IMG/VR virus record: IMGVR_UViG_2537562191_000038 | Span: 1-9,828 of that record | Length of the DNA: 9,828 bases | From: a virus | Taxonomy: Duplodnaviria; Heunggongvirae; Uroviricota; Caudoviricetes | Strand: one strand, 5' to 3' | In this document: positions 26-9,828 of the stretch, one piece after another | Numbering within the stretch: the first letter of the stretch is position 1 | How the letters are laid out: each line of letters starts with the position of its first letter | Position numbers and translations under genes: made by a program | The notes under the pieces: model-generated | The model's input: the letters and a program-made list of their open reading frames with translations, nothing else | What the model was told of the DNA's origin: nothing | The model's database searches: none

Positions 26-262
26 ATGCAGAACAATCCGAACAAATGTCGAACGCTATGGGTGCGGTTATATATTTATGCCGTCCTCTGTTTGATTGTG
101 TCACTGGTTCTGTATGTTTGGCTTTTGCCAAATATGATCTCATCTAACAGCACAATACTTGTATTGTTGGGAGTCCTTCTCGCGCTCATTTACCCGGCTT
201 TCGCAGTAGTCTTTTTTCGTGAAAAAACCAGGAAATTAATTAATGAAAAAAACGTTGATTAG
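26..262 (+). CDS. Small hydrophobic membrane protein (78 aa), probable partner of the downstream SPFH lipoprotein
   Basis: ORF with an upstream GGAG-type ribosome-binding site (taatGGAGtgagagg then ATG at 26). Two long hydrophobic segments suggest two transmembrane helices. The 3' end overlaps the next gene by 20 nt, suggesting co-translation. Confidence 0.5.
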   Translation: MQNNPNKCRTLWVRLYIYAVLCLIVSLVLYVWLLPNMISSNSTILVLLGVLLALIYPAFAVVFFREKTRKLINEKNVD

Positions 263-1070
263 TGCAGCGATTATTTTGGGTTCTTTATGTCTGACCGGAT
301 GCGATCGGGTAGAGCCAGGTAACGTAGGGATCAAAGTAAATAAGCTGGGGGATGATAAAGGTATCGGTGAAGTAGTTGGCGTTGGTCGCTACTGGACAGG
401 CTTGAATACTGAAGTTTATATCTTCCCGACCTTTAAGCAAATGAAGACATACGATGAGCCGTTCAGCTTCCAGATGAGCGACGGAACAACCATTGGTTAC
501 CACATCGGCGTAGCCTACAAGGTTGATCCAGCAAAAGTCACAACGGTATTTCAGACCTATCGCAAAGGTGTAGATGATATTACTGATACCGATCTACGCC
601 AGAAGGTTGCAGATGCTCTGAACCGATTAGCCAGCAAAATGACCACCGACAAATTTATCGACGGTGGCAAATCTGAATTGCTTGATGCAGCCCTTAAAGA
701 CATTCAGGAAGAAATGACGCCAATCGGCATTCAGGTGATGAGCCTCTCTTATGTAGGTAAGCCAGAATACCCGCCAACAGTTATTGACAGTATTAACGCC
801 AAAGTCACGGCAAACCAAAAAACCCTGCAACGCGAGCAAGAGGTCAAACAACGTGAAGCAGAGGCCAACATGCTGCGCGCGGAAGCTGCCGGACAGGCTG
901 ATGCTATTCGCACAAAAGCCCAGGCCGAAGCTGATGCCATTCGTTTACGTGGTGAAGCTCTGCGCCAGAACCCCGGTGTTATGGACTTGGAAGCGATCAA
1001 CAAATGGAACGGTACATTACCGCAGTATATGACCAGTAATACCGCTGTTCCGTTTGTTCCGGTGAAATAA
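243..1070 (+). CDS. SPFH/band-7 (stomatin/prohibitin-like) domain lipoprotein, 275 aa
   Basis: N-terminus MKKTLISAAIILGSLCLTGC is a signal peptide with a lipobox (LTGC). The central region has the SPFH-like pattern and the C-terminal part is Ala/Glu/Arg/Gln-rich and probably coiled-coil (QREQEVKQREAEANMLRAEAAGQADAIRTKAQAEADAIRLRGEA). AGGAA sits 8 nt upstream of the ATG. Family assignment is from recalled signatures, not a search. Confidence 0.7.
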   Translation: MKKTLISAAIILGSLCLTGCDRVEPGNVGIKVNKLGDDKGIGEVVGVGRYWTGLNTEVYIFPTFKQMKTYDEPFSFQMSDGTTIGYHIGVAYKVDPAKVTTVFQTYRKGVDDITDTDLRQKVADALNRLASKMTTDKFIDGGKSELLDAALKDIQEEMTPIGIQVMSLSYVGKPEYPPTVIDSINAKVTANQKTLQREQEVKQREAEANMLRAEAAGQADAIRTKAQAEADAIRLRGEALRQNPGVMDLEAINKWNGTLPQYMTSNTAVPFVPVK

Positions 1071-1097: not shown

Positions 1098-1173
1098 GGC
1101 CCTTTAGCTCAGTGGTTAGAGCTGGCGACTCATAATCGCACGGTCACCGGTTCAAGTCCGGTAGGGGCCACCA
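1098..1173 (+). tRNA. tRNA with CAU anticodon, 76 nt with encoded CCA; most similar by memory to the enterobacterial tRNA-Ile2 (lysidine, ileX/ileY type) rather than elongator tRNA-Met
   Basis: Cloverleaf folded by hand: acceptor stem GGCCCTT/AGGGGCC (7 bp, one G-U), D-stem GCTC/GAGC, anticodon stem GGCGA/TCGCA with loop CTCATAA (anticodon CAT), T-stem ACCGG/CCGGT with loop TTCAAGT, discriminator A, CCA at 1171-1173. Ile2 versus Met identity is from recalled similarity to ileX and is not proven. Confidence 0.85.
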
Positions 1174-2714
1174 TATTTGGTTGTAACACGGCGTCTGGCA
1201 CATGCGTCGTTAGCGGTCTGGTGACGTTAAAGGGGTAACCTTTCCCCTAGCTCAGGCAACAAACCAGGTAGCCGGAATGTGCAAGCCCCGTTCATAGCGT
1301 CGGACTGCGGATTCACCATCCTGGCGATTCGGTGTGACAGCCGGGAAGAGTCCGGCGCATTAATCCTGATTTTCTGGTGATGACTCATATCGTTAGGAGT
1401 GATTTGAGTATGCCGATTATATCTGACATTCAGCACGCCTGGGTGGAGTGCTAATGTCTGCATCCCCTCTTGAATCCATGCCAAATTCCCTTAGTGCAGA
1501 ACAAGCTGTACTTGGTGGCTTAATGCTTGATAACTGCCGCTGGGATGAAGTTGCAGATCGTATAGTTGCTGATGATTTTTATACCAGTGCTCATCGTGAA
1601 ATTTTCAGTGAGATGGAGAGGTTATTAAGTCATGGCAAACCGATTGATTTGATAACACTTGCTGAAGCACTTGAACAGAACGGTAAATTAGAACGCGCCG
1701 GTGGTTTTGCGTACCTTGCGGAGATGTCAAAGAACACGCCCAGCGCGGCAAATATTTGTGCTTATGCGGATATCGTTCGTGAACGCGCGGTTGTTCGTGA
1801 AATGATTTCCGTCGCAAATGAAATAGCTGAAGCTGGATATGCGCAGGATGGCAGGGGCAGCAATGAATTGCTGGATATGGCCGAGCGCCGCGTTTTTGAA
1901 ATAGCTGAAAAACGACAAAAGAGCGGTAGTGGTCCAAAAGATATCGCCAGCATTCTCGATGCAACGGTATCTCGCATAGAAGAGTTGTTTCAGCGACCGC
2001 ATGATGGTGTAACGGGGCTTGATACCGGATTTACCGATCTCAATAAGAAGACGGCAGGACTTCAGGCGTCCGATCTCATTATTGTCGCCGCCCGCCCATC
2101 GATGGGGAAGACTACGTTTGCGATGAATCTCGTCGAAAATGCCGCAGTCCGTAACGATAAGCCCGTATTGGTTTTTAGCCTTGAGATGCCGAGCCACCAA
2201 CTGATGATGCGCTCACTGGCTTCTCTTGCACGCGTTGATCAGACTCGTATTCGAACAGGGCAACTTAACGACGAGGATTGGGCGCGGGTTTCTGGCGCAA
2301 TGGGGATTCTGTTGGACAAGCAGAATATTTTTATTGATGACTCAAGCGCCCTGACACCTACAGAGCTTCGTTCCCGCGCTCGTCGTGTTTATAAAGAAAA
2401 TGGTGGTTTGAGCATGATTATGATCGACTACCTGCAACTTATGCGCGTCCCCGAGCTGCAAGATAACCGAACGCTGGAAATTGCCGAGATTTCTCGCTCA
2501 CTGAAGGCTTTGGCGAAGGAATTACAAGTACCGGTGGTGGCATTGTCACAACTTAATCGATCGCTTGAACAGCGTGCGGACAAACGACCGGTAAATTCAG
2601 ATTTACGTGAATCAGGAGCAATTGAGCAGGACGCAGACCTGATCATGTTTCTGTATCGCGACGAAGTTTATCACCCGGATAGCGAAATGAAGGGCATTGC
2701 CGAGGTAATTATCG

Positions 2715-2717
2715 GAA
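2715..2717. repeat. 3-bp target-site duplication (GAA), left copy, flanking IS629 copy 1
   Basis: GAA lies directly outside both IS termini (2715-2717 and 4028-4030). Removing the IS and one GAA restores an uninterrupted DnaB reading frame. Confidence 0.75.
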
Positions 2718-2759
2718 TGAACCGCCCCGGGTTTCCTGGAGAGTGTTTTATCTGTGAAC

Positions 2760-3650
2760 TCAGGCTGCCAGATCATCGTTTCCGATGGAAGCATAATAAG
2801 CTTTTTCTGCTTCTGCCGGAGGAGTATGGCCCAGCCTTCCCAGCAATCGTCGATTGTTATACCAGTCCACCCACGTTAGTGTGGCCAGTTCCACTTCTGC
2901 ACGGTTTTTCCAGCTCTTACGGTGTATTACCTCCGCTTTGTAAAGACCATTGATGCTCTCAGCCATCGCGTTGTCATACGAGTCTCCTGTACTCCCTGTT
3001 GATGCCAGTAATCCGGCTTCTTTTAGTCGCTCCGTATAGGCCAGTGACACATACTGAGAGCCTTTATCGCTGTGATGGATGGTGCCAGACGGACGACGGG
3101 CCCACAACGCCTGCTCCAGCGCATCCAGCACGAATGTCGTTTCCATAGACGATGAGACCCGCCACCCCACGATGTATCCGGCAAACACATCAATGATAAA
3201 CGCCACATAGACGAAGCCCTGCCATGTGCTGACGTAAGTAAAATCAGCCACCCACAGCTGGTCAGGTCGTTCTGCCACGAACTGACGGTTTACGCGGTCG
3301 CCTGCGGCAACGGCTTTCCGGCTGATGGTCGTACGGACCTTTTTACCCCGGAGAACACCGGCAAGTCCCATAACCGCCATGAGACGTGCCACTGTACATC
3401 TGGCCACCCTGATTCCTTCCCGTAACAACTGACGCCAGACTTTACGCACACCGTACACCTGATGATTTTCATCGTATACGCGCTGTATCTCTCTCTTCAG
3501 CCAGTCGTCGTGCTGCGCACGGGCACTGCGTTTATCCGGATGATGTCGCTGTTGCTGACAATGGTAATACGTTGACGGGGCAATATGCAGTTCGCTGCAT
3601 ACCGGTCCGACCCCGTACTGCTCACGCAGCTTATCCAGCAGTGGCATCAT
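2760..3650 (-). CDS. IS629 OrfB (DDE integrase-core transposase), 296 aa from the MMPLLDKL start; the same frame is open upstream to an ATG at 3731 in this copy
   Basis: Translation contains a retroviral-integrase-like DDE core (WVADFTYV..., HHSDKGSQY..., ...[14 protein letters not shown]) and is identical to the partial OrfB of copy 2 over the shared portion. The 323-aa ORF in the track (2760-3731) includes a 27-codon upstream extension created by the two homopolymer differences. Confidence 0.85.
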   Translation of the reverse strand: MMPLLDKLREQYGVGPVCSELHIAPSTYYHCQQQRHHPDKRSARAQHDDWLKREIQRVYDENHQVYGVRKVWRQLLREGIRVARCTVARLMAVMGLAGVLRGKKVRTTISRKAVAAGDRVNRQFVAERPDQLWVADFTYVSTWQGFVYVAFIIDVFAGYIVGWRVSSSMETTFVLDALEQALWARRPSGTIHHSDKGSQYVSLAYTERLKEAGLLASTGSTGDSYDNAMAESINGLYKAEVIHRKSWKNRAEVELATLTWVDWYNNRRLLGRLGHTPPAEAEKAYYASIGNDDLAA

Positions 3651-3727
3651 TTTTCCAGAGGCGGTCGAACTCCGCCTTCGCAAAATAAGCGGAAGCCTGG
3701 CGAAGGATATCGTTACTGCGGCGCAGT

Positions 3728-3973
3728 TCACGATTTTTCACGTTCCAGCTCTTTCAGACGCTGACGTTCAGCGCTGGTGAGCCCACCATCACCGCCCCCG
3801 GTATCCCGCTCATGCTGGCGAACCCAGACACGCAGAGTCTCCGGCGTACAGCCAATCTTTGGGGCAATGGAACAAATTGCCGCCCACTGTGAGTCATATT
3901 CATCCTGACTTTCCAGAACCATACGAATCGCCCGCTGACGGACTTCGGGGGAAAAACGAGTATTTTTAGTCAT
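3728..3973 (-). CDS. IS629 OrfA (helix-turn-helix transposase subunit), shortened variant (81 aa instead of 108 aa in copy 2)
   Basis: Identical to copy-2 OrfA up to ...KELERE, then KS-stop. The plus-strand T-run at 3734-3738 has 5 T where copy 2 has 4 A (8995-8998), shifting the frame. Confidence 0.8.
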
Positions 3974-4000
3974 CCTGTTTACCTCTTTCTCAGGGAGTTT

Positions 4001-4027
4001 AGTCTCCAGGATTTCCGGGGCGGTTCA
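4001..4027. repeat. IS629 left terminal inverted repeat (copy 1)
   Basis: Reverse complement reads TGAACCGCCCCGGAAATCCTGGAGACT, matching the right end at 2718-2744 (TGAACCGCCCCGGGTTTCCTGGAGAGT) at about 22 of 27 positions. Confidence 0.8.
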
Positions 4028-4030
4028 GAA
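4028..4030. repeat. 3-bp target-site duplication (GAA), right copy, flanking IS629 copy 1
   Basis: See left copy at 2715-2717. Confidence 0.75.
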
Positions 4031-4130
4031 AGCAACGAAATGGCCCAATTGGCACGGTGAGATTGGCTTTTAACGGCCAATACTCACGGTTTGATAACTA
4101 TGCTGGTGCTGACTGGCAAGAGGATTATTA

Positions 4131-5129
4131 ATGCAATGGAATGAGGAAAAGCCGATGAACATCCTGATCATTGGGCGAAAATTTGAAGCTATCAGTGATG
4201 TGAAAACATATACGGAAATGTGGGCTTACAACCTGGCCTGCGCCTTTAGTGAGGCAGGGGTAACATTGCAATTCCATCGTCCATATTCCCCCGGCGTCGA
4301 AAGCCCGGAGGATTATGTTGAAGCTGTGTTGACCGCTGCGACCTCGTGTTCTGCGAAAGCCATTTTAGCGCCAGGATTGCGGTATTTTACTACGGTGCCC
4401 AGGGAAATAGGCGTGCAACTGCGTCGTCGATTCACTGGATGGGTAGCCCAGGTATACGACGGTTCTATGCTGGATTCGGCACCAGTCGATATTACTTTTA
4501 CTGTCCGCGATGATACCTGGCGGTACCTGGATAATCCCGGCAGGTTAGAGCGTCATAATCGCTTTAACAAACATGTTGGATGGGCAGCGAATCAGGATCT
4601 GTTCCATCTGGAAACCAAAACAGACGATGTTCTGCGTATTTTTGTAGACCACGCTGCATTTGATGTTAGTGGGTTTGATCACTCCTTAAGTATCCTTATG
4701 AACCTTCAGCGTCTGACCGTTCCGTATGAGGCCAGAACGTTGACCGATGACGGATTGATTACCATTGATCCGGGGAATATATCGGTAACCCCATACAGAC
4801 GGACGCCGGTACCAGCAACCGAATTTGCAGCTGAATTGCGTAAGAGTGACGTGTTTATCGTTACGCATCCCGAAAGCCTTGGATTAACTGTACTTGAGGC
4901 GGCAATGTGCGGGGCGTTGGTATTAACGCCTCCCGATTGTCTTCCGCCAGATCGCCTGGCTTTGGTGAACCATATGGTTATCAAGTCGCGGATTGATTGG
5001 GATGAGGTTATTGCTCGCGTTGATCGCGTGAAAAATGCTGAAAAGGTCCAGTGTCACACCTGGTCGGCAATTGCGGAAAAGATGCTTGAGACGTTTGTCA
5101 CGCAGAAACCGTCGCGCGGTAACGGATAA
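4131..5129 (+). CDS. Glycosyltransferase-like protein, GT-B fold with an EX7E motif (GT4-like), 332 aa, no confident substrate assignment
   Basis: C-terminal segment SDVFIVTHPESLGLTVLEAAMCGALVLTPP matches the retaining GT-B EX7E signature (E-SLGLTVL-E followed by A-x-G). The N-terminus MNILIIGRKF looks like the start of a Rossmann-type domain. ATG at 4131 overlaps the helicase stop (TAATG); an alternative start at ATG 4155 has a GAGGA site 7 nt upstream. No signal peptide or transmembrane segment is evident. Family call is from motif recognition only. Confidence 0.5.
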   Translation: MQWNEEKPMNILIIGRKFEAISDVKTYTEMWAYNLACAFSEAGVTLQFHRPYSPGVESPEDYVEAVLTAATSCSAKAILAPGLRYFTTVPREIGVQLRRRFTGWVAQVYDGSMLDSAPVDITFTVRDDTWRYLDNPGRLERHNRFNKHVGWAANQDLFHLETKTDDVLRIFVDHAAFDVSGFDHSLSILMNLQRLTVPYEARTLTDDGLITIDPGNISVTPYRRTPVPATEFAAELRKSDVFIVTHPESLGLTVLEAAMCGALVLTPPDCLPPDRLALVNHMVIKSRIDWDEVIARVDRVKNAEKVQCHTWSAIAEKMLETFVTQKPSRGNG

Positions 5130-5151
5130 AAAATTGAACCCGTCATAACAG

Positions 5152-5174
5152 AAAAGCCCGAACGCCGGGCTTTT
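5152..5174. terminator. Bidirectional rho-independent terminator between convergent genes
   Basis: AAAA-GCCCG-aacgc-CGGGC-TTTT: a 5-bp GC-rich stem with 5-nt loop, flanked by an A-run upstream and a T-run downstream. It lies between the stop of the plus-strand gene (5129) and the stop of the minus-strand gene (5176). Confidence 0.6.
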
Positions 5175-5175
5175 C

Positions 5176-8322
<3,147 letters not shown>

Positions 8323-8705
8323 TTATCCTTTCCGTTTACGGGCTTCGTTAATTTGTGTCTCAAGAATGCTTCGCGCCTGCGCAGTGGCAGCGGCCTTGTC
8401 CATTCCCTGACTCATGAAAAACTTTATGAGGTTGTTCGCCTGCGTTTGCAGGGCTTTTTTGAGAGCGTCGGCTTCAGCGCGAGCCTGGGCTTCCCTCACC
8501 CGCGATGCTTTTAGTTCGGCATTCTTCCTGTTTGCCGTGGTGCGAGCTTTTTTTAACAACCGGCGAACGTTGTCCGTGGCGCTATCTTTTGCGCGTAGTT
8601 TTTTGCCTAATGCATCCTGAGATTTCAGATACAGCTCATACTCACGCGCAGCTTTAGCCTGATCCGTCGTTGTTGTCCGGTTGCGCGCGAGCGATTTAGC
8701 CAGTT
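8323..8705 (-). pseudogene. 5'-truncated gene for a Lys/Ala/Arg-rich, probably coiled-coil protein (at least 126 C-terminal codons retained); N-terminal part separated or lost by the IS629 copy 2 insertion
   Basis: The reading frame is open on the minus strand from the IS boundary (8705) to the stop at 8323-8325, with no ATG in the first 48 codons (KLAKSLARNRTTTDQAKAAREYELYLKSQDALGKKLRAKDSATDNVRRLLKKARTTANRKNAELKASRVREAQARAEADALKKALQTQANNLIKFFMSQGMDKAAATAQARSILETQINEARKRKG). The 78-aa ORF in the track starts only at an internal TTG. Confidence 0.55.
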
Positions 8706-8759: not shown

Positions 8760-9086
8760 ATGACTAAAAATACTCGTTTTTCCCCCGAAGTCCGTCAGCG
8801 GGCGATTCGTATGGTTCTGGAAAGTCAGGATGAATATGACTCACAGTGGGCGGCAATTTGTTCCATTGCCCCAAAGATTGGCTGTACGCCGGAGACTCTG
8901 CGTGTCTGGGTTCGCCAGCATGAGCGGGATACCGGGGGCGGTGATGGTGGGCTCACCAGCGCTGAACGTCAGCGTCTGAAAGAGCTGGAACGTGAAAATC
9001 GTGAACTGCGCCGCAGTAACGATATCCTTCGCCAGGCTTCCGCTTATTTTGCGAAGGCGGAGTTCGACCGCCTCTGGAAAAAATGA
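8760..9086 (+). CDS. IS629 OrfA, full length (108 aa)
   Basis: [22 protein letters not shown]...[34 protein letters not shown], with stop TGA at 9084-9086 inside the A6 run and ATGATG region typical of an IS3-family frameshift window. Confidence 0.9.
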
Positions 9087-9828
9087 TGCCACTGCTGGAT
9101 AAGCTGCGTGAGCAGTACGGGGTCGGACCGGTATGCAGCGAACTGCATATTGCCCCGTCAACGTATTACCATTGTCAGCAACAGCGACATCATCCGGATA
9201 AACGCAGTGCCCGTGCGCAGCACGACGACTGGCTGAAGAGAGAGATACAGCGCGTATACGATGAAAATCATCAGGTGTACGGTGTGCGTAAAGTCTGGCG
9301 TCAGTTGTTACGGGAAGGAATCAGGGTGGCCAGATGTACAGTGGCACGTCTCATGGCGGTTATGGGACTTGCCGGTGTTCTCCGGGGTAAAAAGGTCCGT
9401 ACGACCATCAGCCGGAAAGCCGTTGCCGCAGGCGACCGCGTAAACCGTCAGTTCGTGGCAGAACGACCTGACCAGCTGTGGGTGGCTGATTTTACTTACG
9501 TCAGCACATGGCAGGGCTTCGTCTATGTGGCGTTTATCATTGATGTGTTTGCCGGATACATCGTGGGGTGGCGGGTCTCATCGTCTATGGAAACGACATT
9601 CGTGCTGGATGCGCTGGAGCAGGCGTTGTGGGCCCGTCGTCCGTCTGGCACCATCCATCACAGCGATAAAGGCTCTCAGTATGTGTCACTGGCCTATACG
9701 GAGCGACTAAAAGAAGCCGGATTACTGGCATCAACAGGGAGTACAGGCGACTCGTATGACAACGCGATGGCTGAGAGCATCAATGGTCTTTACAAAGCGG
9801 AGGTAATACACCGTAAGAGCTGGAAAAA
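9083..9828 (+). CDS. IS629 OrfB transposase (DDE), 3'-partial at window end
   Basis: Starts ATGATG at 9083 in the -1 frame relative to OrfA. Translation [22 protein letters not shown]... is identical to copy-1 OrfB and is cut by the window edge within ...HRKSWKN. Confidence 0.85.

Follow-up and report, generated by a model that had tools for sequence, protein, structure and literature searches.

The DNA analyzed here (referred to as the window) comprises the 9,828 nucleotides of IMG/VR virus record IMGVR_UViG_2537562191_000038. It very probably represents part of a P1-type plasmid prophage (Punavirus) in an Escherichia coli draft genome, in which an insertion sequence (IS) has entered and inactivated ban, the gene for the "DnaB analog" of phage P1, a loss that was probably neutral or tolerated. 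The window corresponds to the entire draft contig AEZU02000009.1 (9,828 bp; assembly GCA_000194335.2), and its right end lies inside another copy of this IS, a break of the kind that repeats typically induce. A first-pass annotation of the window had described the gene at 1454-4131 as a second DnaB helicase, borne by an island at the edge of accessory DNA and belonging to the replication module of a mobile element. Our data support the second helicase, its phage origin and its disruption, whereas the island and the replication module did not withstand comparison with P1 and its relatives.

Identity and origin of the helicase gene

The open reading frame (ORF) of the helicase gene starts with ATG at position 1454 (an alternative GTG is located at 1448). 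Pfam detected in it the DnaB N-terminal domain (PF00772, E = 3.5e-35) and the DnaB_C domain (PF03796, E = 1.4e-97). The gene is broken after the first base of codon 422, and 33 codons plus the stop codon are left beyond the IS. Deletion in silico of the IS together with one GAA triplet yielded a 454-amino-acid ORF that terminates with TAA at 4129-4131; a 4-bp deletion instead did not restore the frame. The restored protein shares 78.3% identity with K-12 DnaB over 448 ungapped residues and is 17 amino acids shorter (454 versus 471), the length difference being located at the N terminus, so that residue n of Ban aligns with residue n+18 of DnaB. Its Walker A motif (ARPSMGKT) is found at residues 213-220 and a Walker B-like motif (MIMIDYLQ) at 321-328. 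The first-pass annotation had thus correctly placed a full DnaB homolog, about 80% identical to the E. coli enzyme and with a shorter N terminus; it was also right that the IS separates the end of the gene, although the 34 codons that it counted are 33 codons and a stop.

Alignment to phage-encoded DnaB proteins revealed near-identity to P1 Ban (P1_gp077, YP_006543.1; 99.56% over 454/454 amino acids, with 2 substitutions) and 100% identity to the Ban protein of pO111_2 (NC_013370), a P1-like plasmid of enterohemorrhagic E. coli (EHEC). To judge from these sequences, the helicase gene is ban, the DnaB analog of phage P1, on which the classic work is reportedly that of D'Ari et al. in 1975 (cited in PMC10695390). 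The chromosomal dnaB gene is far more distant: it shares 71.5% DNA identity with ban and has a GC content of 53.8%, as compared to 48.1% in ban. Identity at third codon positions amounts to 38.6%, and synonymous divergence is saturated, which rules out a recent duplication of the host gene. On this criterion, ban represents an old phage lineage and not a recent duplicate.

The surrounding DNA is of the same type. Positions 1-2717 are 100% identical to plasmids of approximately 95 to 100 kb from EHEC serogroups O26, O111, O103, and O157, among them pO111_2. Positions 1089-2717 share 97.8% DNA identity with phage P1 and 98.4% with phage P7, whose records name this gene "ban: Ban" and the tRNA "trnI". 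Beyond the IS, positions 4025-8705 form a gap-free alignment to P1 and pO111_2 with 98.5 to 98.8% identity (98.8% to pO111_2). The gene order trnI-ban-dbn-5-6-24-7-25 is colinear with P1 and pO111_2, and there are no gaps outside the IS copies. In this arrangement, ban would occupy its usual site in the C1-repressed ban operon, 3' of the phage trnI and 5' of dbn and the tail genes. Among 5,426 complete E. coli genomes, ban was found in 459 (approximately 8%). The large majority of its locations (455 of 465) are on plasmids, mostly of approximately 90 to 100 kb, and 10 are on chromosomes.

P1 replicates as a plasmid from repA/oriR and during lytic growth from repL/oriL. In the annotated P1 record, oriR is located approximately 8 kb upstream of ban; ban is an accessory, non-essential gene and not the replication module of the element. 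The window contains upstream of ban no tandem repeats or iterons, no origin repeats, and no helicase loader gene; the first-pass annotation had suggested looking there for a loader or origin repeats.

An IS1203/IS629-type element interrupts codon 422

The positions of all features are listed in Table 1. The terminal inverted repeats of IS copy 1 are 25 bp long, and 22 of the 25 positions are complementary (88%). Pfam identified the domains HTH_Tnp_1 (PF01527) in orfA and rve (PF00665) in orfB, as well as HTH_21 (PF13276) in the transposase genes. The ALIL frameshift pseudoknot (RF01497) is present in both IS copies, at 3576-3691 and 9041-9157 (115.7 and 121.5 bits, respectively). Matching copies carry the RefSeq label "IS3-like element IS1203 family transposase"; IS1203 and IS629 are presumably isoforms. 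An element of this type has transposed into codon 422 of ban and has left a 3-bp target duplication, a step that can be read directly from the sequence.

Table 1. Features of the 9,828-nt window
Feature	Position	Strand	Evidence or remarks
Small membrane-protein ORF, 78 aa	26-262		overlaps the SPFH gene
SPFH/Band_7 lipoprotein gene	243-1070	+	PF01145, E = 9.7e-31; SPFH domain-containing protein in pO111_2
trnI, tRNA-Ile2, anticodon CAT	1098-1173	+	ARAGORN; Rfam RF00005, 64.7 bits; P1 annotation
ban 5' part, codons 1-421 and first base of codon 422	1454-2717	+	N-terminal domain, Walker A, Walker B-like motif
Chimeric ORF as encoded, 499 aa	1454-2953	+	Ban 1-421 plus 78 IS-derived residues
Target-site duplication, left copy, GAA, 3 bp	2715-2717	.	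flank of IS copy 1
IS copy 1, IS3 family, IS1203/IS629 type, 1310 bp	2718-4027	-	terminal inverted repeats, transposase domains, ALIL pseudoknot
IS copy 1 orfB	3731-2760	-	transposase
IS copy 1 orfA, truncated to 81 aa	3973-3728	-	transposase
Target-site duplication, right copy, GAA, 3 bp	4028-4030	.	flank of IS copy 1
ban 3' remnant, codons 422-454 and stop	4030-4131	+	contains KQRNG arginine-finger motif (R424)
dbn ("downstream of ban"), possible glycosyltransferase	4131-5129	+	P1 annotation, colinear alignment
P1 gene 5	5176-5808	-	tail/baseplate, intact
P1 gene 6	5801-6817	-	tail/baseplate, intact
P1 gene 24	6819-7604	-	tail/baseplate, intact
P1 gene 7	7591-8319	-	tail/baseplate, intact
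Tail gene 25, 3' fragment, 383/1218 nt	8323-8705	-	cut by IS copy 2
IS copy 2, inverted relative to copy 1, cut by contig end	8706-9828	+	inverted repeats, alignment of copies

Relative to copy 2, copy 1 has an additional A in one A-run and lacks an A in another, 84 nt away, and the two copies also differ by one substitution. The changes in the A-runs lie at 3650-3740 (8995-9082 in copy 2); the additional A is in a GAAAA(A)T run, and the A6 slippery run is the one that is shortened by an A. As a consequence of these two changes, OrfA is cut to 81 amino acids, and an upstream extension is fused to orfB. No exact match to a 151-nt stretch of IS copy 1 was found among finished E. coli genomes, the best match being 99.3%. 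The combination of A-run changes may be a private inactivating variant of the element, or else a homopolymer error or a consensus of several copies.

The junction of ban and the IS, used as a 240-bp query, was absent from the 5,426 complete E. coli genomes and from 72,556 PLSDB plasmids, and a junction 30-mer had no match in the GTDB representative genomes or in IMG/VR. The source contig AEZU02000009.1 was the only record of the chimeric protein found by exact look-up. The insertion is a private, sporadic event of this strain.

Functional consequences of the insertion

In E. coli DnaB, R442 serves as the arginine finger (PMC4705694); it is positioned on a beta-hairpin that one C-terminal domain gives to the ATP site of its neighbor (PMC12661323). 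The corresponding residue of Ban, R424 in the KQRNG motif, is encoded two codons past the insertion point. The chimeric protein thus ends before the arginine finger and the C-terminal strands of Ban, whereas the N-terminal domain, Walker A, and the Walker B-like motif are retained. Since each DnaB subunit supplies an arginine finger to the ATP site of its neighbor, a loss of ATPase and unwinding activity is predicted; based on the structure and function of DnaB, the chimera would fail at both ATP hydrolysis and unwinding. The product of the disrupted gene is almost certainly inactive, and the inactivation put forward in the first-pass annotation is very probably correct. By descent, the gene is a member of the DnaB family; as an allele, it is a pseudogene.

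In the genome-wide CRISPR interference map of P1, ban (efficiency of plating, 1.2), trnI, and dbn were all non-essential, in agreement with earlier genetics (PMC10695390). According to the P1 record annotation, the ban operon is under the control of the C1 repressor at Op72a/b. The same divalent operator (a perfect 17-mer and an overlapping partner) is present in pO111_2, approximately 1.8 kb upstream of the point that matches the start of the window; no C1 operator was detected inside the window. Because ban is dispensable in the presence of host DnaB and repressed in lysogens, its loss should be tolerated, which was one of the two possibilities raised in the first-pass annotation. Taken together, the published essentiality data and the population frequency suggest that the loss of ban by insertion would be neutral and tolerated, in a prophage that accumulates IS elements.

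The other possibility, that interference of a second helicase with the host led to selection for the loss, is not borne out. Essentially full-length ban was found in 453 of 461 records, and uninterrupted matches of 1363-1365 bp were obtained for 39 of 40 rows sampled over the whole ranking. The ban allele of the window differs from that of P1 at 19 of 1365 nucleotides, with 17 synonymous and 2 non-synonymous changes, corresponding to a ratio of non-synonymous to synonymous substitution rates (dN/dS) of 0.034. Selection for the loss of ban is not supported, since the gene is so rarely truncated and its dN/dS is so low.

Some points weigh against our interpretation. The evidence is limited to a single 9.8-kb draft contig of the strain, and its location on a plasmid would follow from that of its relatives. 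The loss of helicase activity is a prediction from structure. In addition, a dN/dS of 0.034 indicates that the gene matters in nature, so that "neutral" may be too strong a word and the insertion may carry a small cost.

Alternative explanations

The tRNA gene located 280 nt upstream of ban, which the first-pass annotation had rightly noted, might point to a different type of element, namely, a chromosomal island, satellite, or integrative element that resides beside a host tRNA and encodes its own replication helicase. The homology to reference P1 and P7 starts only at position 1089, just left of the tRNA, which resembles an island edge, and the 10 chromosomal ban locations fit the same idea. 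However, the window, P1, and pO111_2 do not differ at any base of the tRNA gene, and this gene shares only 89% identity with host ileX (P1 record description). Like trnI of P1, it belongs to the ban operon, which C1 controls in P1, and it is not an attachment site. Furthermore, the DNA left of the tRNA, containing the SPFH module (26-1070), is found on the same plasmids, with 100% identity on the matching plasmids of approximately 97 kb, and in the P1-like phages RCS47 and Ro157c2YLVW. The window contains neither an integrase ORF nor a second copy of the tRNA 3' end; near the tRNA, a 15-nt match of its 5' flank is the sole repeat, and the other copy of this repeat is inside the IS. The SPFH module appears to be an exchangeable accessory cassette common to unrelated temperate phages, and the boundary at 1089 is a cassette swap (mosaicism) within P1-like genomes, not the edge of an island. 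With 455 of 465 ban locations on plasmids, we consider an island origin highly improbable. An assembly artefact is also unlikely. The idea that a collapsed multi-copy IS was wrongly placed within ban during assembly draws on the facts that the window is a whole draft contig ending inside another copy of the same IS and that the two compensating 1-nt A-run differences have an exact match in no finished genome. Nevertheless, both junctions are present and carry the 3-bp duplication expected of IS3-family transposition, and the ORF is restored exactly once the IS is removed; no target-site duplication would arise from a mis-join. The insertion is credible: the junctions require a real one, even should the sequence inside the IS be an imperfect consensus, and we give the artefact scenario very little weight. 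The chromosomal dnaB gene is essential for the host, and this copy is broken; it is thus unlikely that the disrupted ban is the sole dnaB of the genome.

Finally, the inactivation may have been adaptive by sparing the host the interference of a second helicase, or the chimera may have acquired a new function as a dominant-negative protein that poisons DnaB or Ban hexamers. Ban is said to interact with E. coli DnaB and to be able to substitute for it, as far as the title of the 2003 study of Lemonnier et al. tells. In addition, the chimera keeps the parts for oligomerization and ATP binding but not the trans-acting arginine finger, as is classically seen in poison subunits. This contrasts with the conservation of full-length ban and the low dN/dS reported above, with the occurrence of the insertion in one assembly only, and with the repression of the operon by C1 in lysogens; moreover, a second IS in a tail gene points to general decay rather than targeted selection. 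Adaptive inactivation or neofunctionalization is accordingly a very doubtful explanation. In particular, there is only a slim chance that, on derepression of the prophage, the Ban(1-421)-IS chimera would join host DnaB, or the Ban protein of an incoming P1-like phage, in mixed hexamers and poison them as a dominant-negative subunit. If it did, a decaying prophage gene would have been turned into a replication-blocking, abortive-infection-like or superinfection-exclusion function. The tolerated loss of ban in a P1-type plasmid prophage is thus the reading that we retain.

Flanking regions of the window

The trnI gene is called tRNA-Met by tRNA finders, its anticodon being CAT. The spacer between trnI and ban (1174-1453) is conserved with P1 except for one variable patch at approximately 1232-1310, which holds all six indels; a hairpin, GGGG(T/G)AACCTT(T/G)CCCC, is located near this patch. 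The fold of the 280-nt spacer was no better than that of shuffled sequence (z = -0.16). Upstream of ban, no Rfam family other than the tRNA was detected, and no promoter-like sites were found at positions 1-1600 of the window.

Stx2-converting phages and phage P88 contain copies of the SPFH gene with approximately 86 to 87% identity. Further cassette variation was observed in the ban operon: pO111_2 contains three tRNA genes upstream in the operon (Asn, Tyr, and Thr; 7906-8152) versus two in P1 (Asn and Thr; 6425-6578), and its dmt gene comprises 3042 nt versus 2265 nt in P1.

Downstream, the ATG of dbn at 4131 overlaps the ban stop codon (TAATG). The dbn product gave a weak match to glycosyltransferase group 1 (PF00534, E = 1.5e-05) just below the gathering score, and some RefSeq plasmids label it "glycosyltransferase family protein", which fits the note in the P1 record. 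IS copy 1 is now located between dbn and the ban operon promoters, and also between dbn and the dbn promoters that the P1 record predicts inside ban. At the right end of the window, IS copy 2 cuts tail gene 25, the knock-down of which lowered P1 plating approximately ten-fold (PMC10695390). The presence of IS copies in both ban and gene 25 is consistent with an IS-ridden, decaying prophage. The two inverted copies bracket 4.7 kb that contain the ban 3' end, dbn, genes 5, 6, 24, and 7, and the 3' end of gene 25, and recombination between them could invert this segment. Such an inversion was ruled out for the assembled configuration, in which copy 1 is still flanked by its target duplication and the ban frame continues beyond it.

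Significance and comparison with known systems

When an E. coli draft contig shows a "second dnaB" beside a tRNA, the gene is most likely ban, carried by a P1-like phage-plasmid. Annotation pipelines routinely label ban "dnaB: replicative DNA helicase", and trnI is labeled tRNA-Met or tRNA-Ile. The label "dnaB" for ban, together with tRNA-Met for trnI in several phage records, invites the misreading of the first-pass annotation. The importance of the present case is mostly a matter of annotation, as ban has long been known and the feature is thus an ordinary one. On the other hand, ban is almost always intact and under strong purifying selection although it is dispensable in the laboratory, implying a real benefit in nature. 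The IS-disrupted ban adds to the cases in which prophages of EHEC-type strains are eroded by the expansion of IS629/IS1203.

The closest known systems are P1 and pO111_2. Ban of P1 shares with the restored protein the length of 454 amino acids, the operon position trnI-ban-dbn, and the domain structure; it is the same gene. The differences are A98S and A205P in P1 and the interruption of codon 422 by the IS in the window. P1 carries tciA-tciB-tciC directly upstream of trnI, whereas the window has the SPFH module in that position. The Ban protein of pO111_2 (WP_001276599.1, annotated "dnaB") is identical, and in that plasmid both ban and gene 25 are free of IS, unlike in the window. The IS matches IS1203/IS629 of the IS3 family in its length of 1310 bp, its imperfect 25-bp terminal inverted repeats, the 3-bp duplication, the ALIL pseudoknot, and an orfA/orfB pair joined by programmed -1 frameshifting. 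E. coli chromosomal DnaB (b4052) has the Walker A, Walker B, and KQRNG motifs in common with Ban; unlike chromosomal dnaB, ban is controlled by a phage repressor and non-essential.

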